Source: a virus | Virus record (IMG/VR): IMGVR_UViG_3300027974_000020 | Span: 105,198-169,197 of that record | Direction: 5' to 3' (one strand) | DNA: 64,000 nucleotides | Shown: piece by piece, positions 1 through 20,972 of the stretch | How the letters are laid out: the number at the start of each line of letters is the position of its first letter | How positions within the stretch are numbered: the stretch's first letter is position 1 | Made by a program: the position numbers and the translations under genes | The notes under the pieces: model-generated | Database searches by the model: none | The model's input: only the letters and a program-made list of their open reading frames with translations | What the model was told of the DNA's origin: nothing

Positions 1-90
1 CAGATTTAATGATACGAACTCATAGAAATGATGATCAATACAATTTAATACACACCTTAGCAAAAAAGAACCATGGAGTAATTTAATAAA

Positions 91-747
91 ATGAAAAAAA
101 TATACTTAATTGGAGACTGTCATTTATCTAGAGTTTCTGAACATTATGAAGAAGATAACAACCAAGTTGACATGACTTTTTGGGGCAAGGCAGCAAAGAA
201 AATTTGGGATCTAGATTTTCAAGAAATGTATAAAGAGGATGAATTGTCTTCTGGCAAAGAGTCACAAAAATTTCAAAATGATGGTGTTATTCCATTTTCT
301 GAAATAAAAGATGATGGAATATTATTTTCTTGGTTTGGATATGTAGATGTAAGAACATTCTTATCAGCATATGATAACGCAGAAACTGTGGCAAGAAAGT
401 ATATAGACCAATTAAAACAAAATTTTAATAATTCAAAAATAGTGATAATAGAACCACTCCCGCAGTTTACGGAGATGCTATTAAAGTATGAAGGGATCAG
501 CCCATCTTATACCTATGAGCAAAGATTGGAGCAGAATAGAAAGTTCTTAGACTCCATGCATGTGCATGCGCGTGAGGCTGGAATAACAGACTTTATTCTT
601 CAATCGGAGATACTGGATTCATTAGGTGTATCTAAGTTAATTCCTGAAATGACACATGATAAAGCTCCTCATCCAGTAGATGGCCTTCAAGACAAATATA
701 ATAAAAAAATATTAGATCTATTTATAAAAAAGGCATTAGAATTATAA
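91..747 (+). CDS. hypothetical protein, weak SGNH/GDSL-like pattern
   Basis: 218-aa ORF. N-terminal LIGDCH resembles GDS(H) block I, and C-terminal HPVDG resembles the DxxH-type block. Confidence 0.5.
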   Translation: MKKIYLIGDCHLSRVSEHYEEDNNQVDMTFWGKAAKKIWDLDFQEMYKEDELSSGKESQKFQNDGVIPFSEIKDDGILFSWFGYVDVRTFLSAYDNAETVARKYIDQLKQNFNNSKIVIIEPLPQFTEMLLKYEGISPSYTYEQRLEQNRKFLDSMHVHAREAGITDFILQSEILDSLGVSKLIPEMTHDKAPHPVDGLQDKYNKKILDLFIKKALEL

Positions 748-1290
748 ATGATTAAGTTAACTAAAGATATTTTATTATTTACAGATTTATTTGAAGATTT
801 AGATAAAATATTTTTAAATTTAACAGAACTAGACTGGAAAATGTGGGGTCGAAATAACAATGATCCAAACTACAGAATTGGCGAAACAGGCACAATAGAC
901 GATAACGAGTATTTATCTACTCAGATAAAATCTGCTACTCAAAAATGCCTAGATGATTATATGCTAAATTTGGGTATAGATAAAAATTTATATTATCATT
1001 ACCAACATGGTCTATATGTAAGAAAATGGGATTTTCCAATGGCCGGCATGAGTGCTCATAGAGATTACACTTATGATGATCAAGGTGGAATCAAAAAAGT
1101 TGCATATACAATATGCGGTTACCTTAATGATGATTATGAAGGTGGATTAATAGAATTTCCGGAACACGATCTTTCGATTAAACCGCCGGCTGGATCCGCA
1201 ATTGTTTTTAACTCAAATGAATTACATCTGGTAACAGACTTAAAAGATAAACACAGATACATGTGGTCTTGCTTTGTTTATAACAAATAA
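748..1290 (+). CDS. 2OG-Fe(II) oxygenase (prolyl-4-hydroxylase-like)
   Basis: HRD, YLNDDYEGG, LHLV and R-Y motifs give the HxD...H triad plus the 2OG-binding Arg. Confidence 0.85.
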   Translation: MIKLTKDILLFTDLFEDLDKIFLNLTELDWKMWGRNNNDPNYRIGETGTIDDNEYLSTQIKSATQKCLDDYMLNLGIDKNLYYHYQHGLYVRKWDFPMAGMSAHRDYTYDDQGGIKKVAYTICGYLNDDYEGGLIEFPEHDLSIKPPAGSAIVFNSNELHLVTDLKDKHRYMWSCFVYNK

Positions 1291-1386
1291 TCGACTCATG
1301 CTAATCCTTTGATCCCCCGCCCCAAATCCGCGGCGAATTATTTTTTTTATTTTTAATAATTTGTAGTATTATGATACTATAAGGGG

Positions 1387-1776
1387 ATGGAAGAAAAATA
1401 CTTATGGATACTTTTAGGGCTTATATTTGGAGTTACTATTAGACTTATGAATGAACACATCTTTAGAAAGATTCTATCCTTTTTTATGACCTCTAGAGAT
1501 CCGCACTATGACGAGTCTGGCCTCTGTTCATTTGCAGTTGGTGAATCTGAAGAGTTAACCAAGTTTATCACCATTCATGGAGACGCAAAAGGTAATCTTA
1601 TATTCTCTGCTTTTGAACCAGAAGAATGGGAGATGATGGTTGGTATGTGTGAAATTACCGGTAAAGACATTTCTCAGTTTATTGAAGAAATCCAAGAGGA
1701 TAATAAATCAAGAATGCTAGTAGTAGATCCAACTAAATTTACAGATGATGATGAGGATCCATTCGGAATGTTCTAG
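1387..1776 (+). CDS. hypothetical membrane-anchored protein
   Basis: N-terminal hydrophobic segment; AAGGGG SD; TGnTACTAT extended -10 upstream. Confidence 0.65.
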   Translation: MEEKYLWILLGLIFGVTIRLMNEHIFRKILSFFMTSRDPHYDESGLCSFAVGESEELTKFITIHGDAKGNLIFSAFEPEEWEMMVGMCEITGKDISQFIEEIQEDNKSRMLVVDPTKFTDDDEDPFGMF

Positions 1777-1799
1777 TAAGATATAAAAAGATATATAAA

Positions 1800-1835
1800 A
1801 AAAGACCCCTATCCATTCGGAGAAGGGTCTTTTTT
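1800..1835. terminator. bidirectional intrinsic terminator between convergent genes
   Basis: AAAAGACCC...TTCG...GGGTCTTTTTT hairpin with an A-tract and a T-tract, between 1387..1776(+) and 1851..2069(-). Confidence 0.75.
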
Positions 1836-1850
1836 AATTTATATAGGTTT

Positions 1851-2069
1851 TTAGAAGTCTGAGCTATATTCGTAGTTATCCATATCATAATTATCGTAAT
1901 TTACTCCAACTTGGGCTGAAGCGCCATAATAAGTCTTTACACTAAGAGCATCCTCAAATTCATCTTCAACCCACTGTAGACAGTCTGGACAACGTAGATT
2001 ATCATCATACATTCCCTCTGATACCACTATCTCTGATGAACAGTATGGGCAATCTATAAAGCTTGACAT
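1851..2069 (-). CDS. small acidic zinc-ribbon protein
   Basis: CPYC...CPDC pair; GGGAAG SD-like sequence upstream on the minus strand. Confidence 0.65.
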   Translation of the reverse strand: MSSFIDCPYCSSEIVVSEGMYDDNLRCPDCLQWVEDEFEDALSVKTYYGASAQVGVNYDNYDMDNYEYSSDF

Positions 2070-2473
2070 ATTCTTATCTTCCCTTCGCCTTATTAGGCAT
2101 TGTTGTTATGGATGTTTATTCTTCTTATTATATAACAGCTCAATCATAATACACATTTGTATAGATCAAAACAACTCCTGATCAAACTTTTTTTCTGCGG
2201 GCCAATTCTTATTCTCAACCTGTATAAACATATATAAAATTCCTATAAGCCTAAAAAATAGGTAAAAAATATAAGGGGGTAATAGTGAGTATATGTTGTG
2301 CTTCATAAGTTTTAACGAGGCCACCCCTGTATACCCCATCGCTCCTCTGTTTACAAGAGCTAACCGTTGACAATGAGGTTATAAAACACAATGTAAGTCT
2401 GACACTACATAGGCGAAGGTGATATGGATGCACCTACCAATACATCCCACTACATGTTCCTTAAGGAGGAGAC

Positions 2474-2767
2474 ATGTTTACATCAATCATTGAGTGGTTA
2501 GTATTCCTTACAGTAGTAGGCAGTATCGCAGCATCTGTAGGCCTGATGGTCTATGGTGTGTATGTGGTCGTGTCAGATATAAGTACTGTTAATGCAGTGC
2601 TGGTCTTGACAGGGCTATTTGGTACAGTGTTCTCACTGCTTGCGCCATTTATATTCAATGGTGTTATCCCAGCTAATAACTGGGGATTAATGGTTGGTTT
2701 TAGCTGCTGGTTGGTAGCTCTTCCTGCCTTTATAATACTGGGTGCTTGGGCTATAGAGCGCAAGTAA
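2474..2767 (+). CDS. hypothetical membrane protein (3 TM)
   Basis: TAAGGAGG SD; three hydrophobic stretches; followed by a terminator. Confidence 0.75.
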   Translation: MFTSIIEWLVFLTVVGSIAASVGLMVYGVYVVVSDISTVNAVLVLTGLFGTVFSLLAPFIFNGVIPANNWGLMVGFSCWLVALPAFIILGAWAIERK

Positions 2768-2781
2768 TCAGTTAATCAACT

Positions 2782-2852
2782 AAGAAGGCTCTTCCATGGT
2801 AGTGCATGGGAGAGCTTTCTTTTTTATGGCTAGGTATAAGACATCTAGCTAT
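2782..2852 (+). promoter_or_regulatory. terminator + CTAG element, copy 1
   Basis: GCTCTTCCATG/CATGGGAGAGC hairpin, T-tract, then ATGGCTAGGT-ATAAGAC-ATCTAGCTAT. Confidence 0.75.
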
Positions 2853-2905
2853 GTCTCATCAGATCGACATTAACTGTCTGTGACCCCAGCGTAGGTAGTG
2901 GCTGG
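2853..2905 (+). ncRNA. candidate pseudoknot leader RNA, copy A
   Basis: GTC..GAC stem; loop CAGAT pairs with downstream GTCTG; then TGACC and a hairpin. Homologous to copies at 7953, 8746 and 9460. Confidence 0.6.
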
Positions 2906-2967
2906 ACAACACACTGCTATGGAGACACGCGTGCCATATATAACAGCGTGTAATAAGGAGGTAGCTT

Positions 2968-3252
2968 ATCGCTGCTATAACACAAGGTAAGACAGTTACA
3001 TTCAAGCAAGTTGATGATATCATCAATTCTGCCGCTAAGGAATACCGGGTTTACCACTACAATGGTGGACAGGTCTTCATCCGTTTAAGCGCGTTGGATA
3101 ATATGATGATGGTTATCGACCATTCAACAGTAGACATTACAGTTGAGTTGTTTGACGGAACTGCATACTTGGCTGCATATGCCAATAACAACACTGAATA
3201 CAGCAACCGTTTTATTGCTGCGCCATCACAATTGGCTGTGTTGTTTGCTTAA
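2968..3252 (+). CDS. 94-aa hypothetical protein with putative ATC start (absent from ORF track)
   Basis: TAAGGAGG SD, 6 nt, then ATC. The frame (IAAITQGKTV...LAVLFA) is open to TAA at 3250-3252, just before the next terminator. Confidence 0.7.
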   Translation: MAAITQGKTVTFKQVDDIINSAAKEYRVYHYNGGQVFIRLSALDNMMMVIDHSTVDITVELFDGTAYLAAYANNNTEYSNRFIAAPSQLAVLFA

Positions 3253-3260
3253 GTAAGTAA

Positions 3261-3331
3261 TAAAGAAAGATACCCTGGGGTCTTCGGACCCTGGGGTTCT
3301 TTTTTTATGACTAGGACAAAGGTCTTATGTC
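3261..3331 (+). promoter_or_regulatory. terminator + CTAG element, copy 2
   Basis: cTTCGg-loop hairpin, T-tract, then GACTAGGAC-AAAG-GTCTTATGTC. Confidence 0.8.
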
Positions 3332-3356
3332 AATACTCTCTAGGAGGGGAGTAGAT

Positions 3357-3626
3357 ATGAATATGAAAGACAAACTAATAATGGCAATAATTGCAGTATT
3401 ATCAGTGCTTGCAATTGTTAGCTTTGTAGATGCAAGTAACAACCCAGTATCCTGCCAAGTTGACAGTTTGGTAGCGACATATGGAGATACCTATTGGACA
3501 TTGAGCAGTGATGCTGGTTGTGTTGGTGGGTATGATAAGCAAAGTAGGGTTGGGCAGATAATTGATCTTAATGGAGGTTCTGCGGATCTCCGTCATGGTC
3601 AATTGGTAATATTCCCAACTAAGTAA
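3357..3626 (+). CDS. membrane-anchored LysM-domain protein (YneA/ChiZ-like architecture)
   Basis: N-terminal TM or signal peptide, then a GDTYWTLS...IIDLN...LRHGQLVIFP LysM pattern; AGGAGGGG SD. Confidence 0.75.
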   Translation: MNMKDKLIMAIIAVLSVLAIVSFVDASNNPVSCQVDSLVATYGDTYWTLSSDAGCVGGYDKQSRVGQIIDLNGGSADLRHGQLVIFPTK

Positions 3627-3644
3627 ATTAAGTAAGTAAACCCA

Positions 3645-3718
3645 AAAAGAATTCCCCGAGCTGGTACCCTCTGCCAGCTTGGGGTTTTCTTTTTATGACT
3701 AGAGCTCAGGCTTTAGTC
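3645..3718 (+). promoter_or_regulatory. terminator + CTAG element, copy 3
   Basis: CCCCGAGCTGG/CCAGCTTGGGG hairpin, T-tract, then GACTAGAGC-TCAG-GCTTTAGTC. Confidence 0.8.
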
Positions 3719-3830
3719 GGGCTATAAGCGTTACGCCCTGAAAGTAATGCACCGGTCGTTGGCTACCGTAAAGCTAACACCTGTTGCGCAATTTGGGACT
3801 TTCTCTCCCAAAAAAACAGGAGGAATACTA

Positions 3831-4154
3831 ATGATTACAATGATCATTATCGCAACACTCATGGTTGTGGCTGCAGTTGCAGTTACAGTCTGCGTGATGC
3901 AGCAAAAGGCAATCGTTCTGATCAATCAGATCAAGAACCTCATCGTTCAATTGAGCGAAGAGAAAGCAAAAGCAGCCAAGGTTCTTTCCGAAAAGGAACA
4001 AGAACTGAGGGAAGCCAAGGATACAGCACGCCGTCATTTAAATGATTGGAATGCTCTCTACTTGGAGAAAAGGGCAGCTGAAGCCAAAAAGGCAGAAGCA
4101 GCAAAGAAGACAGAAGCGAAAGCTACTGTAAAGAAGACCAAAACAACCAAATAA
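3831..4154 (+). CDS. membrane-anchored coiled-coil protein with Lys/Ala-rich tail
   Basis: AGGAGG SD before ATG 3831; N-terminal TM followed by a charged helical region. Confidence 0.75.
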   Translation: MITMIIIATLMVVAAVAVTVCVMQQKAIVLINQIKNLIVQLSEEKAKAAKVLSEKEQELREAKDTARRHLNDWNALYLEKRAAEAKKAEAAKKTEAKATVKKTKTTK

Positions 4155-4188
4155 GACAAATTAGGGAAAGTCCTAATTGCGCAACAAC

Positions 4189-4250
4189 AAAAGATGCCCT
4201 GGGGGTTAACACCCCTGGGGTTTTCTTTTTATACCTAGAACATAGGTCCT
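4189..4250 (+). promoter_or_regulatory. terminator + CTAG element, copy 4
   Basis: Hairpin, T-tract, then ATACCTAG-AACATA-GG. Confidence 0.7.
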
Positions 4251-4279
4251 TATAATAAGTGAAGGGAGGTGAAATAGAA

Positions 4280-4453
4280 ATGGAAAACGCTAGGAATGGC
4301 ATATTCCCACATAAGTGTGGATGGCCATCCTGTGAGTTTGTAGTGGAATTGGACGATGAGCCCAATTGCTTTACTCATTCACCAGACAGCGGCAGTTCCG
4401 AGGTCGGCTACTCTGCAAGGAGAGATGCTGAACGCGGAATCGTACGGTTCTGA
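4280..4453 (+). CDS. small Cys/His (putative zinc-binding) protein
   Basis: GGAGGT SD before ATG 4280; C-x4-C...C-x2-H. Confidence 0.65.
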   Translation: MENARNGIFPHKCGWPSCEFVVELDDEPNCFTHSPDSGSSEVGYSARRDAERGIVRF

Positions 4454-4520
4454 TGGGATGGCAGCCAACTGACTAAGAGTCGGGGCAGATGAATAGTGCC
4501 TGGCAACAGAAACTATCATG

Positions 4521-4588
4521 AAAGAATAATCTCAGGGGTTAGCATCCCTGAGATTTTCTTTTTATGACTAGGGAAAAGGTCTCTAGTC
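4521..4588 (+). promoter_or_regulatory. terminator + CTAG element, copy 5
   Basis: AATCTCAGGG/CCCTGAGATT hairpin, T-tract, then GACTAGGGA-AAAGG-TCTCTAGTC. Confidence 0.8.
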
Positions 4589-4682
4589 TGGTTAGCAGAC
4601 CATAATCTGTTTAGCCGTAGCTGTACATACGGTGCCAGCGTGATGGGCGCATCCCATCTTTATGATTTCTTAAGGAGGAATC

Positions 4683-4973
4683 ATGTTCGGCATCATATTG
4701 CTACAAAACTGGTTGACTTTTGCGATATTCGCAATTTTGATATCAGTCTCGGTAATGATCATTATCGAGGAAACAAAAGGTAAAGGTATCATTAACACTA
4801 TCCTATACACTTTAGGATTTGTGTCACTGTTGTCTTTATGGCCTGTATTTAATATCTATACAGCCATACCTATCACAAACGATAATAATTTATTATTTAT
4901 AATAGCTTTATTTACAACATATTTTGCTCTGGTATTTGCTGGAACAGAGTTGATGGATAAAGCTACAAAATAA
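4683..4973 (+). CDS. hypothetical membrane protein (3 TM)
   Basis: TAAGGAGG SD; hydrophobic segments. Confidence 0.75.
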   Translation: MFGIILLQNWLTFAIFAILISVSVMIIIEETKGKGIINTILYTLGFVSLLSLWPVFNIYTAIPITNDNNLLFIIALFTTYFALVFAGTELMDKATK

Positions 4974-5025
4974 TAAAAAACTAGAATACTTTAGTTGTAC
5001 AGAGCTAAAGTTTTCTTACCAAACT

Positions 5026-5090
5026 AAGAAGTCCTTGGGGTTAGCATCCCAGGGATTTCTTTTTTATGCCTAGTGGATAGGTCACTAGGT
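5026..5090 (+). promoter_or_regulatory. terminator + CTAG element, copy 6
   Basis: Hairpin with GTTAGCA loop (as in copy 5), T-tract, then CCTAGTGG-ATAGG-TCACTAGG. Confidence 0.8.
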
Positions 5091-5139
5091 AGGCAATCTT
5101 ATTATGCCTACAAATAATAAGAGGAAGGGGAGCCTCATC

Positions 5140-5325
5140 GTGTCTGACACCTTGAAGCGCTTTCCTACCCTGACCTTACAATGCGCAGACACAATCTGCT
5201 TCATTTGTAAGACAGAAACCAAAGTCAATGGGGATACCAACCCCTATGACCTTGGTTTTGCCAGGGTAGGTGGCAACTCCGCCAACGGGTACGAGATCTA
5301 TCACATCTCGTGCTGCAACGGCTGA
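5140..5325 (+). CDS. small putative zinc-binding protein
   Basis: AAGGGGAG SD before GTG 5140; CFIC...HISC. Confidence 0.6.
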   Translation: MSDTLKRFPTLTLQCADTICFICKTETKVNGDTNPYDLGFARVGGNSANGYEIYHISCCNG

Positions 5326-5385
5326 GTTAGCCTAATACTGGCCACCTGTGCCTGTCTCATAACTGGGGGACATTAAACTACTCAG

Positions 5386-5455
5386 TGAGAGGGTAGCCCA
5401 AAGCATTAGCTAGGGCTACCCTCTTTTTATATGACTAGGAGAAAGGCTTCTGGTT
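5386..5455 (+). promoter_or_regulatory. terminator + CTAG element, copy 7
   Basis: GAGAGGGTAGCCC/GGGCTACCCTCT hairpin, T-tract, then GACTAGGAG-AAAGG-CTTCTGGTT. Confidence 0.8.
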
Positions 5456-5483
5456 AAACCAAACATACAACAAAGGAGAAACC

Positions 5484-5753
5484 ATGCGTACATCACCACG
5501 CTGTGTTGGTATAGTAAAACCAACAAGTAGGCGAGTGTTAAAGAAGGGGTTGGAGAGGTATCCTCAGATAAAGGGGGATGTAACTCAACAACGGTGCTTA
5601 AAAAGTATCAACTGCCCACACCACAGGGTTGCTAATGCTAGAATTATGGAGCTTCCATTAGAAGAACCATATGTAGAGCTAACAAGAGAGCAAATAAGGC
5701 AATTGATTAACATCGGTTACATGGCTGAAACAGGCCGTCCATACTACTTATAG
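5484..5753 (+). CDS. hypothetical basic protein
   Basis: AAGGAG SD; 89-aa ORF. Confidence 0.65.
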   Translation: MRTSPRCVGIVKPTSRRVLKKGLERYPQIKGDVTQQRCLKSINCPHHRVANARIMELPLEEPYVELTREQIRQLINIGYMAETGRPYYL

Positions 5754-5777
5754 ACCATAGGTCAAAGGAGAATAACA

Positions 5778-6905
5778 ATGAAATCATTAAAGCGTTTATT
5801 AATAATCTCTACTGTTGCAATTTCTTTTATTGGGGTCAATGAAAGTTCTGCTTCAGCTAGAAATAACAAATGTGTAAAAGTTGGCACATTTAAAACGGCA
5901 GTAAAAGTTAAGTACGAATGCAAGAGATTGACCACAGGTCTCAGATGGGTAAAGGTACAAACAAAAGTTGTACCAACAACACCTGCTGAAGTTATAATAC
6001 CAATACCAACTGATTGGTCAAATATTGAAAAGTATGCACAAAACATACCATACGCAGCATGGAAGGCAAGTGTTGGCGCGATCACCACTGGTATGCCTCA
6101 GATGCCAACAGTGAATATCATTAATGGACCAAATGCCCTTATAGCTTATTCAACTCCGGAAGTTAAGATTAATTTAACATCACGTTTATTTTCATCTGCA
6201 AAGCAACTTTCGCAGGTAAATATTATGCGTTTTGGGTATGATGATATTGGATGGGCTAATTCAAAGTGGTTAGAGCAATTTAATGGCCAAGATAATTCTG
6301 TTCCAAGAGAAATATTCGATACGTGTAAAACTACCACGACATGTTGGGGTGGCATTTCGCGCAATACCAAAAGTGGAATAGCTTGGTTTGCTTTGGCAAC
6401 AATGAAAGATAATCTATCTGAACCTAAACTTGTAAACGGGACTAACTACGCGCACTCATATGCTCATGCAATCCAATACGCAGCACTGTCTGAAATACCA
6501 GCACAAAGACTGCCAAGATGGTTGCTTGAAGGAGTTGCTACTTATTCACAAGCTGCTGTTGAAGGCATGGTAAGTTTTGATTTATACAAGTCTGAACGCA
6601 CAAGAGAAACAGGAGGATTAAATAACTCTCTTGAATGGCTTGAATCATTTCTTGCCCCAACAGGCAATGATTGGTCTCATTGGAACAAATATACTGGTAA
6701 TGATTCTTGGAGAGTTTATGATGTTGGTTTTATGGCAACCGAAGCGTTAGTAGCCCTCAGAGGACCAAACACTGTAATGAGTTTGTATACAAAAGTAGGA
6801 AGTGGTCAAACTTTTGATCAAGCGTTTAATGAGCTATATGGAATCTCTTGGGCTGAAGCTCACAAGATAATTGCTCGTGTAATTTCCTTACAAATTAACA
6901 AATAA
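5778..6905 (+). CDS. secreted gluzincin-like protein, catalytic Glu apparently lost
   Basis: Signal peptide; HSYAH in place of HExxH, followed by PRWLLEGVA and a YDVG motif. Confidence 0.6.
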   Translation: MKSLKRLLIISTVAISFIGVNESSASARNNKCVKVGTFKTAVKVKYECKRLTTGLRWVKVQTKVVPTTPAEVIIPIPTDWSNIEKYAQNIPYAAWKASVGAITTGMPQMPTVNIINGPNALIAYSTPEVKINLTSRLFSSAKQLSQVNIMRFGYDDIGWANSKWLEQFNGQDNSVPREIFDTCKTTTTCWGGISRNTKSGIAWFALATMKDNLSEPKLVNGTNYAHSYAHAIQYAALSEIPAQRLPRWLLEGVATYSQAAVEGMVSFDLYKSERTRETGGLNNSLEWLESFLAPTGNDWSHWNKYTGNDSWRVYDVGFMATEALVALRGPNTVMSLYTKVGSGQTFDQAFNELYGISWAEAHKIIARVISLQINK

Positions 6906-6912
6906 TCTTATT

Positions 6913-6973
6913 AAAGAATAGAGGGTCCTTCGGGGCCCTTTTTTCTTTATGACTAGTGGATAGGCCACTAGTC
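6913..6973 (+). promoter_or_regulatory. terminator + CTAG element, copy 8
   Basis: GGGTCC-TTCG-GGGCCC hairpin, T-tract, then a perfect 9-bp stem GACTAGTGG-ATAGG-CCACTAGTC. Confidence 0.85.
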
Positions 6974-6993
6974 TTTAGTTAAGGAGAAGAGTA

Positions 6994-7320
6994 ATGAAAG
7001 AAATGGAATGGTGTGGATGCATGGATGTGCGTTCATGGAAAGATGGCTTTGCTGATATTTTTAGCAGAGAGTTAGTAGAAGGTAAAAGAAAAGGTGAGTT
7101 GTATGAATTGTTTGAAGTTAAAAGCTTTGAAGAATTTAAGGATGAGTTAAGTGATATTGCATGGGGTGTAGGACGTATTGTTGGTGGTTTGGTTGGTAAG
7201 CCATATGTACGGATTATTGGTGATGCAATACATTACAATAAGGTTGTTTCTCGTATGAATGAATATGGTTGTATGAGGAGCAAGCGATTTCTTATTAAGG
7301 GTGAATGTCCTAATAAGTGA
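6994..7320 (+). CDS. hypothetical protein
   Basis: TAAGGAG SD. EELSD-like DELSDI motif is reminiscent of MazG-like helical proteins (weak). Confidence 0.65.
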   Translation: MKEMEWCGCMDVRSWKDGFADIFSRELVEGKRKGELYELFEVKSFEEFKDELSDIAWGVGRIVGGLVGKPYVRIIGDAIHYNKVVSRMNEYGCMRSKRFLIKGECPNK

Positions 7321-7350
7321 TTTAAGTTAATTAGTAAATAATTGACGGGG

Positions 7351-7413
7351 TATGCCCCTAGGGTCGTTTGATCCTAGGGGTATATTTTTTATGCCTAGTG
7401 GAATGGCCGCAGG
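7351..7413 (+). promoter_or_regulatory. terminator + CTAG element, copy 9
   Basis: CCCCTAGGGTC/GATCCTAGGGG hairpin, T-tract, then GCCTAG-TGGAAT-GG. Confidence 0.75.
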
Positions 7414-7436
7414 TTATAGATTATAGGAGAAGAGAA

Positions 7437-7868
7437 ATGAAAGAGAAAGCAATTATAGTTGATATTGATGGTACTTTGTTTGAAGAGGTGCCAGGTTGGA
7501 CAATGGAGACTGATGCATGGTGGGTGGAAGAAACACTTAAGATGCGTGAGTTGAAAGTTGGAATTGGATTAATTAAAGTATTTAAGGAAATGGGATTTAA
7601 GTTGGTTTTCTTGACAGCAAGAGGACAAAGCTGCAAGAAGAATACTTTGATTAAGTTTAAGGAAGCTGGTATTGATAACTTGGTAGATTCGATGTGGCAC
7701 AGGCCAGTTAAGTGGAATGGCGTGGCACCAGTTGAATATAAGAAGTTCATGATGCAACGGATTATGAAAAAGTATGATGTTGTGTTTGCTATGGATGATA
7801 GCGACAAGAACTTGGAAATGTTTAAGGGATTGGGTATCAAGGTATTTGATGCAAAGAGGTGGTGGTGA
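7437..7868 (+). CDS. HAD-family phosphatase (PNK 3'-phosphatase-like)
   Basis: DIDGT motif I, LTAR motif II, K, and MDDS motif IV; AGGAG SD. Confidence 0.8.
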   Translation: MKEKAIIVDIDGTLFEEVPGWTMETDAWWVEETLKMRELKVGIGLIKVFKEMGFKLVFLTARGQSCKKNTLIKFKEAGIDNLVDSMWHRPVKWNGVAPVEYKKFMMQRIMKKYDVVFAMDDSDKNLEMFKGLGIKVFDAKRWW

Positions 7869-7890
7869 GGTTATTGATAAACCTCAGACC

Positions 7891-7951
7891 AAAGAAACTA
7901 GGGTCCTTCGAGGCCCTTTTTTCTTTATGACTAGGACACAAGTCTTAAGTC
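7891..7951 (+). promoter_or_regulatory. terminator + CTAG element, copy 10
   Basis: GGGTCCTTCGAGGCCC hairpin, T-tract, then GACTAGGAC-ACAA-GTCTTAAGTC. Confidence 0.8.
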
Positions 7952-7952
7952 T

Positions 7953-8001
7953 GTCTATTGGTAGACATAAACTTCATGACCCCACTATTGGTAGTAGGTG
8001 G
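7953..8001 (+). ncRNA. candidate pseudoknot leader RNA, copy B (shorter)
   Basis: GTCTA-TTGG-TAGAC, ATAAAC, TTCATGACCCC, then a hairpin. Confidence 0.5.
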
Positions 8002-8054
8002 CAAATCATACTACCAGGGCACAGCCTTCACTGTGACTAATAAAGGAGAATAAA

Positions 8055-8735
8055 TTGGAAATGAACGAAGAGCCCAAAGCAATGCCAAAGTGGTTGGGTA
8101 AATTCCCAGCCTACATCAAACAATTGTGGTTGGATTCAAACAAAATTGAACCCACACCACCAGTGGAACCATCACTGCCAGCAGAAGGCGAATTTCGTTT
8201 TCTGTTGATTCCACAAAATGACACAAGCAACTCCGAGGCGGTACCGATGTTGGTGCTCATCCAGAAAGTACTTCAAGATGGGTACTTCCAGGTAATGCTT
8301 ACTCATTGTGAAGATGCAATGCAAACATACTCTGATCTTTACGTCACTAGTGGCGAAACAGGTTTGGGGTATGGTGTTTTCATTAGCACCGCAATACAAA
8401 ATCAAGCTAACGTGAATTGCTTGAGCGAAACTGCAGTTGGTAAGTTGATTCCTTCAATGGTACGAGCTAGGGGTACATACAATTTTGGACCTAATGATGA
8501 GTGGCGCAGAGGACGTCGCTTTTCTTCAGATCGATTTGTTGCACAACTAGATCCACGTTGGAAGTTCGTTAATGAACAACTTACTGCAATGCAATACCTA
8601 CTGGGCGCATATGAAGATGAAGGCGATACTCGTGACTCTGAATTGAGCGCAAAACACCAAGCAGAAGACATGAAATCGTTTTACCAAGTTGACCGTGACA
8701 ATGGTGAACTTCTTCCATCGCAGAAAAACAACTAA
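8055..8735 (+). CDS. hypothetical protein
   Basis: AAGGAG SD; 226-aa ORF with a TTG start, or ATG at 8061. Confidence 0.7.
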   Translation: MEMNEEPKAMPKWLGKFPAYIKQLWLDSNKIEPTPPVEPSLPAEGEFRFLLIPQNDTSNSEAVPMLVLIQKVLQDGYFQVMLTHCEDAMQTYSDLYVTSGETGLGYGVFISTAIQNQANVNCLSETAVGKLIPSMVRARGTYNFGPNDEWRRGRRFSSDRFVAQLDPRWKFVNEQLTAMQYLLGAYEDEGDTRDSELSAKHQAEDMKSFYQVDRDNGELLPSQKNN

Positions 8736-8745
8736 GTAAGTAATA

Positions 8746-8800
8746 GGTCTGATTGGATCGACCTTAACTGTCCATGAACCAACCGTTAACCAAGAGGTTG
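8746..8800 (+). ncRNA. candidate pseudoknot leader RNA, copy C
   Basis: GGTC-TGATTGGATC-GACC, TTAACT, GTCCA (pairs with loop TGGAT), TGAACC, then a CAACC/GGTTG hairpin. Confidence 0.6.
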
Positions 8801-8843
8801 TAATTCACATGGTTATTTAATCACAAACAAAAGGAGAAGGATA

Positions 8844-9362
8844 ATGTCAGATAACAAAAACAAATTCCAGTCAAGGCTGGATGCAATCTCAAAGGTTGCA
8901 ATTGTTTTACATGCCTTTGGCACATGGTATGAACTACAAATTGAATCCAGTGACAAAAATCGGTTGACTGATGGGGCACTGAAGTATACACAGCATGTTA
9001 GCTTGTTCCCAAGCAGCAGAACATTGTATTCTTTTGTTGGTGTTTCAGAAGATGGTGCAATTGTCAATGGTTTCATGCATGATGGAACAAGCAACGACAA
9101 TGGTGGTTATGGCAGTGATTCGTTTGAATTGACGATGAAAGATGGATCACACAAAGTCATAACAGGACCATGGAGCTCAAGACCAGGAGTTCATACTGTT
9201 AACAGCGGTATTCAATACACTGAAGTTAGAGTTGGTTATGGTATGTATGGATTCTCAAGGGAATTCATTGAAGCCATAATTGATCGATTTAACCTCGATG
9301 TAAATCTTGACTCAGTAACTTTGGAAGACAAAGAAATTAATCTGAAAGTAACACCTAAGTAA
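8844..9362 (+). CDS. hypothetical phage protein
   Basis: AAGGAG SD; 172 aa with GYG...GPWSS motifs. Confidence 0.7.
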   Translation: MSDNKNKFQSRLDAISKVAIVLHAFGTWYELQIESSDKNRLTDGALKYTQHVSLFPSSRTLYSFVGVSEDGAIVNGFMHDGTSNDNGGYGSDSFELTMKDGSHKVITGPWSSRPGVHTVNSGIQYTEVRVGYGMYGFSREFIEAIIDRFNLDVNLDSVTLEDKEINLKVTPK

Positions 9363-9400
9363 GTAGCAGCGGTGAGCCTGGAGTTAGGTTTCAGGCTAAG

Positions 9401-9458
9401 GAAATTAGGGTCCTTCGGGGCCCTTTTTTCTTTATGACTAGGAATAAGGTTCCAAGTC
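9401..9458 (+). promoter_or_regulatory. terminator + CTAG element, copy 11
   Basis: GGGTCCTTCGGGGCCC hairpin, T-tract, then GACTAGGAA-TAAGG-TTCCAAGTC. Confidence 0.8.
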
Positions 9459-9459
9459 C

Positions 9460-9513
9460 GTCTGATTGGATCGACGTAAAATGTCCATGACCCCTGGTTA
9501 TTGGTTACCCAGG
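9460..9513 (+). ncRNA. candidate pseudoknot leader RNA, copy D
   Basis: GTC-TGATTGGATC-GAC, GTAAAAT, GTCCA, TGACCC, then a CCTGG/CCAGG hairpin. Confidence 0.6.
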
Positions 9514-9576
9514 ACAACTACGTAACCAGAGAGACACTATCTCTCTATAATAAAAAGTGTAATAAGGAGGAATGTT

Positions 9577-9966
9577 ATCAAAGAGCAAATCAACAAAATC
9601 AACCAGGTCACTGATGGTGACAAGGTCAAGTGCGAGCCGTGCTTTGGCACAGGTAAGTACATGAGCAAAACCGTCATCGATGGAACATGTTTCCGTTGCA
9701 AAGGCACTGGTTCAGAAAAAGCAATGTCAATCAAGCAATACAATTTCATCAAGGAATTGTTCATGGCATTGGTGAAAATGAACATCATTGTGAAAGAGAA
9801 CAATGAATGGCATGAAATGGTTAACACCATGAACCAACACAAGGATGGAATTACATTGCGGTCATCCAAGTGGGCATCAGACAAGATTGAGGAATACAAG
9901 GCTCGCAAGAACCGTGTCCTCAAACCTAAGAGGCCAGTGTATTCAGTTACCCACTGTGGAATTTGA
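9577..9966 (+). CDS. DnaJ-type CxxCxGxG zinc-finger protein with putative ATC start
   Basis: TAAGGAGG SD, 6 nt, then ATC in frame with ORF 9661. The extension supplies the first CEPCFGTG, which pairs with CFRCKGTG. Confidence 0.7.
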   Translation: MKEQINKINQVTDGDKVKCEPCFGTGKYMSKTVIDGTCFRCKGTGSEKAMSIKQYNFIKELFMALVKMNIIVKENNEWHEMVNTMNQHKDGITLRSSKWASDKIEEYKARKNRVLKPKRPVYSVTHCGI

Positions 9967-10070
9967 GCAGTGGGATGAACCACAGTGGGTAACTGAAGAA
10001 TGGAAAGCTGGAGAAGATGCAGAGGCTGACATATACTAGCACCGCCAGGTGTATAGGTAGTCATCAAGTC

Positions 10071-10131
10071 AAAGAAGAGGGGGTCCTTCGGGGCCCTCTT
10101 TTCTTTTATGCCTAGGACACAGGTCTCAGGC
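10071..10131 (+). promoter_or_regulatory. terminator + CTAG element, copy 12
   Basis: GGGTCCTTCGGGGCCC hairpin, T-tract, then GCCTAGGAC-ACAG-GTCTCAGGC. Confidence 0.8.
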
Positions 10132-10157
10132 TAACACTCTCTAGGAGGGGAGTAATC

Positions 10158-11609
10158 ATGAAGAATAAACCAACAACAAACAAGGAGGAAACGGTGTATA
10201 AAGACACTGTCTACGCAAAACTGAGAAGGGCACTTTACAATGTCATTCTCGAAGGTAAATTCATGCAAGAAACTCAATGGGACGAGAATGGACGATGCCA
10301 CATGGTTCAGACATTTGGTGACCGTGGAATTATTGCAACAATGCAACGAAAAGCAAATAACAAAGGATGGGTTGTATTCTTTACTTTGTGCATGTACAAG
10401 CACGAGCAAAATCACATTCCATTCATGCGTGATTTGAAAGTTAGATTGACTATCAATGAAACTCCATCTGGAGTAAGATTATTGTGGTTTGTTAATGGTA
10501 AGCCACAATGGATGGTAGAAAGTAGTCAAATGGCTTTCTCAAATAAATTCCATCATACTGGACATATAGTTCAAGAAGTTATTAATCAGATCAAGAGTAT
10601 ATATTCTCCTGAAGATTTTATACCGATCTTGAAGTACATGCAAAATCCAACATGCAAAGAGTATACTTTGTATGGCCTTAACCAAAGGTGGATGAAAAAG
10701 TTATCAGGTGGAACAAACCCTAGGCAAATCTTGAATAAAATCTATGGCAAAGATGGGCAGGATGGGTTGAGCAGAAATGCTTTTGGTTCAAATATTGGCA
10801 AAAAGAGTTTTGCTACATTTGCTATAGCAGCTGAGCTAGTGCGATATTTGAAATCATTTCCTACATCATTCTTTGATAAAATCATTCTTGATGACTTTGC
10901 AGTACAAGATATTGCATACTTGGGGATGATGTATCAAGATGTAACTTACATCCAATATTTCATTAAGTACTTTAATCACAGTAAAATCCAACAAGATTTT
11001 ATTAATGCGATTAATAACTTTGAAATGTATCCACATTCTGATTATGACATTTCAGATGCTACAGAACGTTTCTTTAGGATGAGCATTTGGCAGGAAGCAC
11101 GTGATACCGGCAGGATGTTCAAGGAAATAAAGAACAGAGCTGTTCGGAGAAACATCATTGCACTTAAAGGCACGGTTCAAGAAACCCATGACCTTGTCAC
11201 TATCGAGAATGCAAAGCTAGCTCGAGAAGATAAGCAAATCAAATACAGTGATAAGAGCCTTATCCTGGATGGTCAACAGATAACAGATAATATTATTTCT
11301 GTTCTTCCGAAGACAACGTTTGATTTAATATTATGGGGTTCACAACAGCACAACTGCATAGGTAGCTATGGAGATCGTGTTGCTCGTGGCACAGGTGCGA
11401 TTGTTGTTGGATTCAAAGATGTGACAACAGATACTTGGGTCGGCCATGCTGAACTCAATAACTATTTCAACAGCTTTGGAAGTTCTTGGACAATCATGCA
11501 GTTGAGGGGCAAATATAACTCAAACCTTGATGAGTCAGATGAAACTACTATTCGTTTGTTTCTGGACAACATACTCAATGCTTGGAATGAAGAGTTAGTA
11601 TTGCCATAA
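10158..11609 (+). CDS. PcfJ-domain protein
   Basis: C-terminal HD...LPKT..DL..WG..QHNCIGSY...QLRGKYN pattern typical of PcfJ-like domains. Confidence 0.75.
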   Translation: MKNKPTTNKEETVYKDTVYAKLRRALYNVILEGKFMQETQWDENGRCHMVQTFGDRGIIATMQRKANNKGWVVFFTLCMYKHEQNHIPFMRDLKVRLTINETPSGVRLLWFVNGKPQWMVESSQMAFSNKFHHTGHIVQEVINQIKSIYSPEDFIPILKYMQNPTCKEYTLYGLNQRWMKKLSGGTNPRQILNKIYGKDGQDGLSRNAFGSNIGKKSFATFAIAAELVRYLKSFPTSFFDKIILDDFAVQDIAYLGMMYQDVTYIQYFIKYFNHSKIQQDFINAINNFEMYPHSDYDISDATERFFRMSIWQEARDTGRMFKEIKNRAVRRNIIALKGTVQETHDLVTIENAKLAREDKQIKYSDKSLILDGQQITDNIISVLPKTTFDLILWGSQQHNCIGSYGDRVARGTGAIVVGFKDVTTDTWVGHAELNNYFNSFGSSWTIMQLRGKYNSNLDESDETTIRLFLDNILNAWNEELVLP

Positions 11610-11628
11610 AGTTTTACCTCAGGTAAAT

Positions 11629-11703
11629 AAGAGAGAAGGGTCCTTCGGGACTCTTTTCTTTTATGCCTAGTTCACAGGTCTCAGATCACTGAGGTCGCTA
11701 GGC
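11629..11703 (+). promoter_or_regulatory. terminator + CTAG element, copy 13 (upstream of RNA polymerase gene)
   Basis: cTTCGg hairpin, T-tract, then GCCTAG-TTCACA-GG. The partner CTAGGC is at 11698-11703, beyond an inserted hairpin. Confidence 0.8.
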
Positions 11704-11739
11704 AAGTAATACAAACCAATAAACCCTTAAGGAGGGAAT

Positions 11740-14331
11740 ATGGAAGACCAACCGGTCAAACCGCCCGATGCAGCGGCCAATGCATCAACAAAGGAGAAGA
11801 AGATGCCAAAAGGTATCATCACTTTCCTGAAGGGGCGCTTTCGCGTTCTGACAAATAATCCAACTCCGAAAGAGGAGCAGGCATACAATTTGTCTCAGGA
11901 AACCAATAAGCCAGTCCCGTTTGGACGGATCAAGACTGTTACTGGATACAATTATGTCCAGGACGTCTACGCTGTTCAGACTGGTGACTTCACCTACTCC
12001 TTGTTGGAGAACAAACTTACTAAGCGGGGAATTAAGTTCCGTTTAGGAGTCGTCTCTAACAAGGATCTATCAGAGCTCGTAATCAAACACGAACTGTTCA
12101 GTCTTAATGACATGATCAGTAAGTGCAGGTTCGCATGGGCTAACGCATCATACACCTTCTTCCTGGAGGTTCAAGACAGTAAAGAAGCATCAAGCTTTGA
12201 TCTGTCTGATCTTGGGTTGGAGGTCTATGACTTCAAGAAGACCAGCAAACGTTTGCAGGAAGTGACTCGTATCACTCAAATGCATTCGTCTGGTCCGATT
12301 GGCAAACTTGATTATCGCATGTTGGAAGATCTTCCTGGTGAAGAACTTGCATATGATGGTCCAGTATTTGTCAGCGACTCATTTGCAGTGCGTTCTTGCT
12401 TTAGTATGACTGATGGTCCTGCTAAGAACAAGCACATTGCAATGATCAATCGCGGTAAGATCGGTCCAATGATTGGTCGTATTCTGATGGATCAAGGTGA
12501 AGTTAAGGGCCTTGTCCACGTTGTTCCACGACAACAGCTAGGTGCGGATGTGGTTTTCCACAAATCTGCTCTGAAGCGAGAGTTAAAGACTGACGATGGA
12601 CGTTGGCACTATACTGCCTTCAAACACAAGAACCTCCACACTGCTATGTGGGATATGCAAACTATGTTCAATAACCATACCTGGTTAATGACCAAAGAGC
12701 AATTCACACTGGACATGGAGTCTGTTATCACTGACTTTAACAAGTCTGTTGAGAATGGACAGCTTCCTGACTGGATTATCCACCAGGAAACTGACGGGCA
12801 CAAGGATGACTCAGCTCCACAAGTAGAGCATGTGACATCTGGCTGGAAGAAGAGTTACATCCGCTGGCAACAAGCTGGTTTGGATGTAACTGCATCTAGC
12901 AACCTCGTCTACATGGCTTTCGGATCATTGCTGAACCAAATGCGTTCTGCTTTGAAACGAAACACGTGGTGGGTTCCCATCTCTAATGCCTTTACGGCGA
13001 CAGTAACCACCTTCGATGCTTTGGAGGTCATGGGTAACTTTGAGCTGCCTCAGCACAAACGAGACATGGTGTTCTTTGATGAACGCTTTGGCTGTATTGT
13101 GCCGACTAAGCGGTTCATTGAGACTGCTGACCTTCATGACACGTGGGATCAGGACGGTGACCAAGCTAAGTTCATCCGCATTAAACTGTGGAGTTCTTCG
13201 CTTGTTATGAGCCTTGATGGATACAACCATCCGGAACTCAGGGAAACATATGTCATTCCTGCTGATTTGGTAGTGCCAAGCACTCCTGAAGAGGCAATTG
13301 ATATGTGTGTCGTTATCCGTTCACCAAACGGTCCTGGCGGTTACTCTATCGAACGGTTTGATGCTGAAACGATGCCATGGCTTCGTGTAGCGGAAGATCG
13401 TGTACAGGTAATTGATCTGGCCAAAGCACCAGCTGCAATGAGCACTTTGCTCGTTACAACTGAATGCGGTCAGATTAATAGCTCCACTACCTACAGCAAG
13501 GAATTGTTCAACCGGGATCATGCTCTTAATATGATCTTGGCACAGATGAATAACCCTGGTGTTGGTAGGTACGCTAATCTCATTATGGTTTGGGCTGCAA
13601 CATTTGGTCCAAGCTATCCTGATAAGTTGCCTGCAATTGGTAACGATGTCATTGACTGTGTTCAACAGACCGCAGACCTTGGTTCATTTGTTCAATTGCA
13701 AAGTGACTACTCAGAAATGGCTGAAAGCATTGCTCAGGCGATCATTGACAGCGGTTGTGGTATTGACCGTTATGTTCTTGAGACCCGGTTCCCTGCACTC
13801 AGCGATGAGACACGCCAAATGCTGGTAGATATTGCAGTAGACGGTCAGTTTACTGAGATGTACAACGCATACAATCAAACTATTACAAAGGTGCAAAATA
13901 TCGCATCCAAGGGTAGCTTTGATCTGCGTTTGACATCTGACACTCGTAACAAAGTGTACAATGCAATTCCAGCTATGAGGGAGTCAACCTCTGTTTGGTG
14001 CCGTGGCATCTGGTCAAAGTATGAACGTGAACTCTCAAGGGTTGACGGTAAGTACTCTGAACTGTCCAAGAATACCAATCGCTTTGTAAAGATGTCTGCT
14101 GTTGCACAACGCACAGAAGAAATCTCTACCATCATTGGTGCACTGTTGGATGAAGTCAAGGCAACATCACATCCTGAGCTCTATGCTCTTGCTATCTACC
14201 GTTGGATCATTGATCCGGAACTGACTCGCAGTAAGTATGGCGTGTCTGACCGTATCATCTTCCAGAACGGAATAGACGGACAAGAGACCATCATGGATCT
14301 CATTATCACAGCAATCAAGGACCTGAAGTAA
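11740..14331 (+). CDS. single-subunit two-barrel RNA polymerase (YonO / RNAi-RdRP-like), paralog 1
   Basis: DGPVFVS, GRILMDQGEVKGLV..SALK (DPBB-A lysines), DQDGD (13147-13161), IRSP, GVGRYAN and IDC motifs. Confidence 0.8.
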   Translation: MEDQPVKPPDAAANASTKEKKMPKGIITFLKGRFRVLTNNPTPKEEQAYNLSQETNKPVPFGRIKTVTGYNYVQDVYAVQTGDFTYSLLENKLTKRGIKFRLGVVSNKDLSELVIKHELFSLNDMISKCRFAWANASYTFFLEVQDSKEASSFDLSDLGLEVYDFKKTSKRLQEVTRITQMHSSGPIGKLDYRMLEDLPGEELAYDGPVFVSDSFAVRSCFSMTDGPAKNKHIAMINRGKIGPMIGRILMDQGEVKGLVHVVPRQQLGADVVFHKSALKRELKTDDGRWHYTAFKHKNLHTAMWDMQTMFNNHTWLMTKEQFTLDMESVITDFNKSVENGQLPDWIIHQETDGHKDDSAPQVEHVTSGWKKSYIRWQQAGLDVTASSNLVYMAFGSLLNQMRSALKRNTWWVPISNAFTATVTTFDALEVMGNFELPQHKRDMVFFDERFGCIVPTKRFIETADLHDTWDQDGDQAKFIRIKLWSSSLVMSLDGYNHPELRETYVIPADLVVPSTPEEAIDMCVVIRSPNGPGGYSIERFDAETMPWLRVAEDRVQVIDLAKAPAAMSTLLVTTECGQINSSTTYSKELFNRDHALNMILAQMNNPGVGRYANLIMVWAATFGPSYPDKLPAIGNDVIDCVQQTADLGSFVQLQSDYSEMAESIAQAIIDSGCGIDRYVLETRFPALSDETRQMLVDIAVDGQFTEMYNAYNQTITKVQNIASKGSFDLRLTSDTRNKVYNAIPAMRESTSVWCRGIWSKYERELSRVDGKYSELSKNTNRFVKMSAVAQRTEEISTIIGALLDEVKATSHPELYALAIYRWIIDPELTRSKYGVSDRIIFQNGIDGQETIMDLIITAIKDLK

Positions 14332-14349
14332 TAGGTTCTTCCGAGTAAA

Positions 14350-14452
14350 GAGAGAGAGCCCCTGGGGAAACCTAGGGGTTCTTTCTTTATTCCTAGATCC
14401 TAGGTCTTTAGTTATTATATTAATATTTTTTTTTCCTAGATCTTAGGACCCT
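14350..14452 (+). promoter_or_regulatory. terminator followed by two variant CTAG-N6-GG elements (copies 14 and 15)
   Basis: GCCCCTGGG-GAAA-CCTAGGGGTT hairpin, then TTCCTAG-ATCCTA-GG and TTCCTAG-ATCTTA-GG. Confidence 0.65.
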
Positions 14453-15188: not shown

Positions 15189-15213
15189 GTTGACTGCTCA
15201 TTCCCCAAGGTGT

Positions 15214-20899: not shown

Positions 20900-20972
<73 letters not shown>

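Follow-up and report, generated by a model that had tools for sequence, protein, structure and literature searches.

What kind of RNA recurs in the leaders of small phage genes, and what might it do there? The question is posed by a 64,000-base stretch of viral DNA (hereafter the window) that forms the last 64 kb of the 169,197-base IMG/VR virus record IMGVR_UViG_3300027974_000020 (positions 105,198 to 169,197). The record is ~80% complete by CheckV, its close relatives being 205-216 kb, and a megablast search with bases 2400-12000 of the window returned no cultured-phage match. Bases 2.8-11.7 kb of the window form an array of small plus-strand genes, in whose leaders an earlier note, made from the letters alone, had described a four-copy motif with a single H-type pseudoknot. 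We found that the pseudoknotted, covarying sense-strand RNA of that description stands, but that the unit is larger: a conserved structured RNA of ~65-75 nucleotides (nt) with three modules, namely a 5' domain, a linker and a pseudoknot (PK2), in which two knots can lie in tandem and the first (PK1) is replaceable. A clade of freshwater phages with genomes of ~200 kb carries the element in its region of small-gene cassettes, at roughly one copy per cistron.

Two pseudoknots in tandem

In every copy, the loop of the hairpin that follows TGAMCC is complementary to a stretch ~6-9 nt past that hairpin, and the element thus consists of two H-type pseudoknots in a row. The PK2 loop:tail pairs in the window are AACCA:TGGTT (copy at 8746), GGTTAC:GTAACC (9459), TTGGTAGTA:TACTACCAG (7952) and GGTAGTG:CACTGCT (2852), to which relatives add GTCAT:ATGAC, GACCC:GGGTC, GGTCA:TGATC, ACTCTA:TAGAGT, GACTC:GAGTC and more. 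The earlier note had listed this hairpin as a variable terminal one: the hairpin exists, but its stem is stem 1 of PK2, the most conserved part of the element. PK2 is the constant core, while PK1 is exchangeable for a plain hairpin.

The 5' domain takes three forms. Type 1 is PK1, with a 4-base-pair (bp) stem N-GUC/GAC-N', a first loop UGAU of 4 nt, a 5-bp second stem, a single C, and a third loop NUUAAAU of 6-7 nt, the loop and tail pairing across the A-rich UUAAAU linker. Type 2 is a plain hairpin, GUCYA-UUGG-URGAC, found in the copy at 7952 and in many relatives, and type 3 is some other hairpin, as in the fifth copy of the window; the plain hairpins that interchange with PK1 have 5-6 bp. 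The single-stranded linker (C)AUGAMC, with its nearly invariant GA, leads into PK2. There, stem 1 has 5 bp and occurs in at least 12 different complementary versions, and stem 2 has 4-9 bp and occurs in ~20. The PK2 hairpin loop of 10-13 nt includes a first loop of 2-4 nt (GUU, GAU or alike), the second loop is 0-3 nt, and the third loop, of 6-10 nt, is a pyrimidine followed by an A-rich run (UAAAACACA, CAAAACAUU, ACAACAC or UCAAACAA). Both knots show the A-B-A'-B' stem order, compensatory changes, and loops long enough to span their stems. In some copies (L023:1923-2011, L042:1501-1569 and L090:7635-7703) a mini-hairpin, AGCU-AGU-AGCU, is inserted in the PK2 third loop and extends it to ~18 nt.

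We scored the four helices in a 47-sequence MAFFT alignment (A7) against 500 shuffles and against partners slid by 1-3 columns. Paired cells amounted to 88.2%, compared with 72.4 +/- 0.8% in the shuffles (0 of 500 as high) and 33-42% with slid partners, and the covariation score was 0.42 against 0.15 (again 0 of 500). In PK2, 93% of the stem 1 cells were paired and three pairs had changed on both sides, while stem 2 was 90% paired with five of the six pairs so changed. The 5' stem was 96% paired; the outer pair, which the earlier note had seen covary as T-A, T-A, G-C and C-G in the window, appears among the 47 relatives as CG (15), UA (12), UG (7), GC (5) and AU (4). Pairing in PK1 stem 2 dropped to 73% overall because the type 2 rows lack that stem. 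A 30-sequence MAFFT alignment, less well aligned, gave the same picture, and the match of each PK2 loop to its own downstream stretch outscored all 20,000 permutations (22 distinct loop classes).

For PK1 stem 2, the loop-tail covariation noted earlier between TGGAT:GTCCA and CAGAT:GTCTG is real and widens in relatives to four compensated versions, with CGGAT:GTCCG and TGCATC:GATGCA, alongside a one-sided change, TGGAT:ATCCA; the copy at 7952, which had been counted in, has no such pairing. For type 1 domains we discarded the alternative that PK1 stem 2 is instead an extended plain hairpin, GTC(T)GAT/ATCGAC, because the G-to-C change in CAGAT variants breaks that hairpin while the tail compensates the loop changes. 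An invariant U-G pair in PK1 stem 2, together with the absence of minus-strand matches described below, fixes the sense strand.

Copies in the window

The four copies lie where they had been reported, at 2852, 7952, 8746 and 9459 on the plus strand. The composite pattern GTC-loop-GAC-N-WAA-N-TGAMCC matches the whole 169,197-base record at these four places and nowhere else on its plus strand, and has no match on its minus strand. Their E-values under covariance model R2 range from 5e-15 to 4e-6. With filters off, an R2 scan of window positions 1-16000 returned five copies: 8746 (5e-15), 7952 (2e-10), 2852 (2e-9), 9459 (4e-6) and 2337 (0.0015). Their parts, and two further sites discussed below, are as follows.

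2852-2918, plus strand: copy c1 (R2 E 1.6e-9)
2852-2880, plus strand: c1 PK1, stem 1 TGTC 2852-2855 / GACA 2866-2869, stem 2 CAGAT 2860-2864 : GTCTG 2876-2880
2881-2885, plus strand: c1 linker, TGACC
2886-2918, plus strand: c1 PK2, stem 1 CCAGC 2886-2890 / GCTGG 2901-2905, stem 2 GGTAGTG 2894-2900 : CACTGCT 2912-2918
2918-2951, plus strand: possible third hairpin or knot after c1, TATGG 2918-2922 / CCATA 2934-2938, with ACACGC 2925-2930 : GCGTGT 2946-2951
7952-8017, plus strand: copy c2 (R2 E 1.7e-10)
7952-7967, plus strand: c2 5' domain, a plain hairpin TGTCTA 7952-7957 / TAGACA 7962-7967 with loop TTGG and no loop-tail pairing
before 7982, plus strand: c2 linker, ending CATGACC
7982-8017, plus strand: c2 PK2, stem 1 CCACT 7982-7986 / GGTGG 7997-8001, stem 2 TTGGTAGTA 7988-7996 : TACTACCAG 8009-8017
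8746-8815, plus strand: copy c3, intercistronic, 2 nt past the all-frame stop run TAAGTAAGTAA (E 8e-28; R2 E 5e-15)
8746-8774, plus strand: c3 PK1, stem 1 GGTC 8746-8749 / GACC 8760-8763, stem 2 TGGAT 8754-8758 : GTCCA 8770-8774
between c3 PK1 and PK2, plus strand: c3 linker, TGAAC
8780-8815, plus strand: c3 PK2, stem 1 CAACC 8780-8784 / GGTTG 8796-8800, stem 2 TAACCA 8787-8792 : TGGTTA 8810-8815, third loop TAATTCACA
9459-9529, plus strand: copy c4 (R2 E 4.4e-6)
9459-9487, plus strand: c4 PK1, stem 1 CGTC 9459-9462 / GACG 9473-9476, stem 2 TGGAT 9467-9471 : GTCCA 9483-9487
between c4 PK1 and PK2, plus strand: c4 linker, TGACC
9493-9529, plus strand: c4 PK2, stem 1 CCTGG 9493-9497 / CCAGG 9509-9513, stem 2 TTGGTTAC 9501-9508 : GTAACCAG 9522-9529
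9528-9546, plus strand: extra hairpin after c4, with a possible ACACT:AGTGT pairing up to 9560
2337-2397, plus strand: fifth copy (R2 E 0.0015; R1 E 9e-9, the R1 match being placed at 2344-2404)
2345-2359, plus strand: 5' domain of the fifth copy, a plain hairpin CTCT 2345-2348 / AGAG 2356-2359
2361-2381, plus strand: PK2 stem 1 of the fifth copy, TAACC 2361-2365 / GGTTA 2377-2381, with third loop TAAAACACA and a weak stem 2, ACA:TGT only
4586-4680, plus strand: non-member site, a hairpin GTCTG/CAGAC, then CATAATC and other hairpins
5353-5385, plus strand: lone PK1-like module, TGTC/GACA plus CTGGG:CTCAG across TTAAACTA, with an intrinsic terminator in place of PK2

A weaker fifth copy had been suggested near 4586. 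That site gave no match to R1 or R2 with filters off at E<=10, and the real fifth copy is the one at 2337-2397, which sits after a GGGGTATACCCC-type box and before the gene 2474-2767. The module at 5353-5385 matches only the 5' half of the model (R2 E 3.7) and does not count as a full member. R2 also gives one weak match in this genome outside the window (G000:C1:79801-79865, E 0.37).

The long leaders, including those of c1 and c4, have an added third hairpin or possible knot that ends in GUGU-AAUAAGGAGG; in the c1 leader, the Shine-Dalgarno sequence AGGAGG (2956-2961) directly follows this putative hairpin. Read by eye, c1, c4 and relatives show covarying pairings in this putative third hairpin: ACACGC:GCGTGT, ACACT:AGTGT and ACACAC:GTGTGT.

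Distribution of the family

A covariance-model search of freshwater viromes, which the earlier note had proposed, revealed a family. A stricter 25-mer pattern derived from three of the window copies also occurs in ten other IMG/VR contigs, and model R1, made from nine copies without gaps, recovered 30 distinct instances from the whole records that contain those loci, the fifth window copy included. Further instances came from loci around homologues of the 863-amino-acid (aa) gene 11740-14331, and a looser PK2 pattern yielded 62 loci with 66 model matches in one metagenome scan and 18 loci in an IMG/VR scan. After duplicate removal we parsed 74 distinct instances in ~65 freshwater phage or metagenome contigs. 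Pattern matches in L050 and L054 lay in GC-rich coding DNA and were discarded as chance.

The element looks phage-specific, since a single pattern run against 185,579 species genomes had one true match, in a 1.9-kb contig of a lake metagenome bin; the other 10 of the 11 cellular-genome matches were not recognised by the model. In relatives, copies come in threes or fours, spaced 0.5-1 kb apart. Neither model found a copy in more distant relatives, which share 42-43% polymerase identity and include a complete genome of 209.7 kb that has terminal repeats, and a search with the 172-aa protein encoded downstream of c3 found no relatives. Several metagenome contigs, L075, L095 and L104 among them, have an end that falls a few bases or less from an element, which would be expected of a repeat that breaks assemblies.

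The element accompanies the downstream gene

The earlier note had placed the motif in cassette leaders that follow a CTAG-containing element. This holds within the window, where three copies directly adjoin a CTAG hairpin, but across the family 40 of the 68 copies with enough upstream sequence come directly after an open reading frame (ORF) that is 40 codons or longer. For 34 of these 40 intercistronic copies the start of the element is 5-14 nt past the stop codon, the spacer being AU-rich, and a further 17 of the 68 copies follow a hairpin or box, either the CTAG hairpin or the GGGGTATACCCC box. Runs of the TAAGTAAGTAA type, with a TAA stop in all three frames, are frequent at gene ends (window 8724-8745, 9358-9368 and 3270-3285, and relatives).

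Behind every copy come a Shine-Dalgarno sequence, placed outside the element and 11-70 nt past it, and a start codon, which is 22-83 nt away from the last base of PK2 (mode 28-31). As these features are constant and the upstream contexts differ, the element is probably tied to the downstream gene. The proteins served fall into 27 unrelated families of 34-190 aa, and none of the served proteins of the window that we scanned (2474-2767, 8055-8735, 8844-9362 and the C-terminal part of 9577-9966) has a Pfam match. The genes behind c1 to c4 are these.

2968-3252, plus strand: gene served by c1, with an apparent AUC start 6 nt after AGGAGG and an in-frame TAG two codons upstream
8061-8735, plus strand: gene served by c2 (224 aa, no Pfam match)
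8844-9362, plus strand: gene served by c3 (172 aa, no Pfam match)
9577-9966, plus strand: gene served by c4, with an apparent AUC start 6 nt after AGGAGG

Gene 2968-3252 has a conserved N-terminus (KQVDDIINSAAKEY) ahead of its first canonical start, and gene 9577-9966 has a CxxC...CxxC region, a zinc-ribbon-like motif, upstream of its first ATG. Homologues of the two in relatives start at AUU, AUC or UUG.

Gene order differs between two relatives. Record G001 reads gene X, element, gene B, element, gene A, whereas record G002 reads gene X, element, gene A. At its 5' end, the G002 element (L021 1501-1578) matches the first of the two G001 elements (L030 642-1203), and in its 3' part it matches the second. 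Such a hybrid is what recombination between two elements would leave, and it fits cassette gain or loss, for which the elements appear to serve as crossover points.

The CTAG hairpin and the start of the RNA

Genes of the array are each followed by a GC-rich hairpin with a T-run and by a TTTATG(A/C)CTAG(G/T) element, in ~12 copies altogether, and the array holds at least 12 terminators. At the TTTATGMCTAG sites across 2823-11671, the 'promoter-like' CTAG element is itself a covarying hairpin with an NNAGG-type loop.

2828-2850, plus strand: CTAG hairpin adjoining c1, arms GGCTAGGT / ATCTAGCT, G-U pairs included
7929-7951, plus strand: equivalent CTAG hairpin adjoining c2 without spacer
9436-9458, plus strand: equivalent CTAG hairpin adjoining c4 without spacer

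The hairpin probably belongs to the same RNA as the pseudoknot element, because its G-U pairs exist on the plus strand only. The gap between the two is 0-1 nt in the three CTAG-associated copies of the window, and this direct adjacency leaves little space for a conventional promoter between terminator and leader. Together with the strand bias of the G-U pairs and the place of the element's first base in a covarying pair, it suggests that the RNA starts upstream of the element, and probably ahead of the CTAG hairpin as well.

A second conserved upstream box, TTTAACGAG-CCCAC-GGGGGTATACCCC, with a palindromic GGGGTATACCCC core, occurs at window 2305-2336 and in L026, L027, L028, L040, L046 and L070. 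It sits a variable 2-9 nt ahead of some copies of the element and could be a promoter or an RNA hairpin.

Possible functions

What the fold does for the phage we infer from its anatomy and surroundings. Of the four functions the earlier note had offered, that anatomy disfavours the riboswitch and the antitermination signal, and the nuclease block and the protein-binding site would still be compatible with it.

We tentatively favour a constitutive leader block, one that sits at the 5' boundary of each cistron's messenger RNA (mRNA) and protects or insulates the message downstream. A PK2 stem 2 of 4-9 bp and a Shine-Dalgarno sequence outside the element point to a constitutive fold. As part of the downstream gene's leader, the element would fold without a ligand, and a compact pseudoknotted block would form at the cistron's 5' boundary. 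Cleavage in the AU-rich stop-codon spacer, or just past an upstream hairpin, could place that block at a new 5' end, where it would shield the message from 5'-end-dependent decay and keep the A-rich ribosome-binding region free of pairing with upstream sequence. The outcome would be context-independent expression, suited to cassettes that shuffle by recombination.

Four observations weigh against this proposal or fail to help it. Many cassettes of the same array do without the tandem-pseudoknot element, which is thus not required for expression as such. Several unpaired positions are well conserved (the GA of the linker, the AA in the PK1 third loop and the U in the PK2 first loop); these bases are not obviously needed by a purely mechanical block and would fit a protein, ribosome or catalytic role at least equally. 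Minimum free energy folding of five leaders, restricted to nested structures, gave z-scores of -1.3 to +0.5, which are not significant and lend no support, a result that is expected for pseudoknots and is silent both on them and on access to the Shine-Dalgarno. Lastly, a protein search with the helicase reached only distant phages (identity of 39% or less) and gave no clue to the host or its RNases.

The same conserved unpaired nucleotides, set among stems that vary freely, are what a docking site or operator might show. A phage or host RNA-binding protein, the 30S subunit or S1 could bind PK2 and the linker and so set the translation of small early or middle genes. Such arrangements have precedents: T4 gp32 acts via a leader pseudoknot, and RegA controls many early mRNAs. 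Many copies ahead of unrelated genes suggest a regulon, the commonest position of PK2, ~30 nt upstream of the start codon, is the edge of the 30S footprint, and some of the served genes have the weak start codons AUC, AUU or UUG. However, the distance to the start codon varies over 22-83 nt with extra hairpins in between, and no candidate binding protein emerged, the neighbouring proteins having no informative Pfam or PHROG match. We consider a docking site rather unlikely, though a close rival of the leader block.

A bolder claim, that the element is the first phage or bacterial counterpart of the viral exoribonuclease-resistant RNAs (xrRNAs), blocking 5'-3' RNase J-type or 5'-end-dependent decay, or else a new class of self-cleaving ribozyme punctuating the polycistronic transcript, strikes us as doubtful. 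The second half of it, a small ribozyme that would cut polycistronic RNA between cistrons, is improbable when taken by itself. The element is intercistronic, phage-borne, multi-copy, compact and pseudoknotted, with about a dozen well-conserved unpaired positions, and in layout it is reminiscent of pistol's 5' part, a hairpin being followed by an A-rich linker and a pseudoknot. Yet it matches no Rfam ribozyme model at E<=10, its 5' domain can be swapped for unrelated hairpins and its PK2 second loop varies from 0 to 3 nt, which would be unusual for a catalytic core; given the shallow divergence, conservation is weak evidence here.

We give very little credence to a processive antiterminator that would act on RNA polymerase like the HK022 put RNA and allow read-through of the array's intrinsic terminators. 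A two-domain RNA of ~70 nt could serve, and three window copies lie just downstream of a terminator and CTAG element. But the element comes once per cistron, not once per operon, a pattern that argues against antitermination: c2 and c3 stand in one terminator-bounded unit, one ahead of each gene, and most family members lie between genes with no terminator nearby.

A riboswitch for some global signal is the least probable of all and we disfavour it: PK2 is laid out like preQ1-I, with a stem of 5 bp and a loop of 11 nt, then an A-rich tail and another stem, but its long second stem would be stable without a ligand and the Shine-Dalgarno is free, there is no terminator or sequestering platform, the 27 downstream families are unrelated and non-metabolic, and the element has no Rfam match and, by the one pattern run on the 185,579 species, no place in cellular genomes bar the metagenome-bin contig.

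Two other readings were rejected. A leader peptide from the linker AUG would shift in frame and length between copies with 10- and 11-nt loops, and changes in stem 2 would rewrite it. A GAGG at the junction of PK2 second loop and stem 1, read as a Shine-Dalgarno, is not kept in other stem variants.

Novelty and significance

The earlier note had not recognised the motif as a known riboswitch, and Rfam 15 agrees: searches of the whole window at gathering score, and of 2700-11800 with cmscan at E<=10, returned only tRNAs and chance-level matches, none on the motif. Seven tRNA genes are among the Rfam matches, spread among plus-strand genes at window 20900-36127 and 59879-59951. Full-text literature searches turned up no account of the motif, which appears to represent a new family of leader RNAs, pseudoknotted and phage-borne, although it may be an unnamed entry in a 2023 catalogue of 8,495 candidate structured RNAs from IMG/VR (PMC10690425).

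The element is compact and multi-copy, shows unusually clear covariation for two consecutive pseudoknots, and marks cistron boundaries in large uncultured lake phages. A role in stabilising or insulating messages would make it a naturally occurring, portable part for context-independent expression of cassettes and a candidate tool for synthetic operons; if it proved a nuclease-resistant RNA or a ribozyme, it would open a class of RNA that is new to bacteria and phages. Its small size permits assays on synthetic RNA, for which no cultured host is needed. Apart from terminators, RNase III sites and single-gene operators, few cis-acting RNAs of phages have, to our knowledge, been described.

Comparison with known systems

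Nearest to the element in the way they work are the gene 32 operator, preQ1-I, pistol, the T7 RNase III sites and the xrRNAs; as far as sequence can tell, it has the defining features of none of them. In the gene 32 operator of T4 and T2, too, an H-type knot opens a phage leader, and an unstructured A/U-rich stretch then extends up to the ribosome-binding site. The short-leader copies have a similar layout, but many leaders contain additional hairpins. In the T2 knot the second stem abuts stem 1, as it does in our long-leader copies. The operator, however, is a single knot, present once per genome ahead of the gene for an autoregulated single-stranded-DNA-binding protein, whereas the element has two tandem knots in at least five copies per genome, serves 27 unrelated families of small genes and shares no sequence similarity with it.

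The partial likeness to preQ1-type knots and pistol that the earlier note had drawn proved just that. PK2 resembles preQ1-I (RF00522) in its 5-bp stem, ~11-nt loop, A-rich third loop and loop-tail second stem, but it does not match the model, it has a far longer second stem and a Shine-Dalgarno separate from the knot, queuosine genes are not involved, and the element looks confined to phages. In preQ1-I itself the short second stem depends on the ligand and includes or adjoins the Shine-Dalgarno or a terminator. Pistol (RF02679), which is also common in phage-like DNA, has a hairpin with a pseudoknotting loop and then an A-rich linker similar to UUAAAU. The element has neither the enclosing P2/P3 helices nor the G-U cleavage site of pistol and no model match at E<=10, and its partner strand, GTCCA, comes right after the linker and is followed by UGAMC and PK2. 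The HK022 put RNA differs in position, with one per operon, just past the promoter and ahead of the terminators to be read through, as opposed to one per cistron, 40 of 68 after an ORF stop.

The RNase III sites of T7 early mRNA are likewise structured RNAs repeated between cistrons, one per gene boundary, and conserved by covariation, but they are long imperfect duplexes of ~20 bp, and the short knots of the element do not resemble RNase III substrates. Class 3 xrRNAs of plant viruses and the flavivirus xrRNAs share with it an apical loop that pairs just 3' of its hairpin, and lie where the RNA to be shielded begins. An xrRNA is a knot that closes a ring around the 5' end and halts a 5'-3' exonuclease; the element resembles none in sequence or by model, and we know of no bacterial or phage xrRNA.

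The mobile PeSL (promoter-early plus stem-loop) cassettes of T4-type phages resemble the element in genomic setting, as in G001 and G002: there, too, short regulatory repeats flank small genes in a hyperplastic region and are apparent points of recombination for the shuffling of cassettes. A PeSL, however, is a promoter with a simple stem-loop, whereas the element described here is a pseudoknotted RNA selected for its fold.

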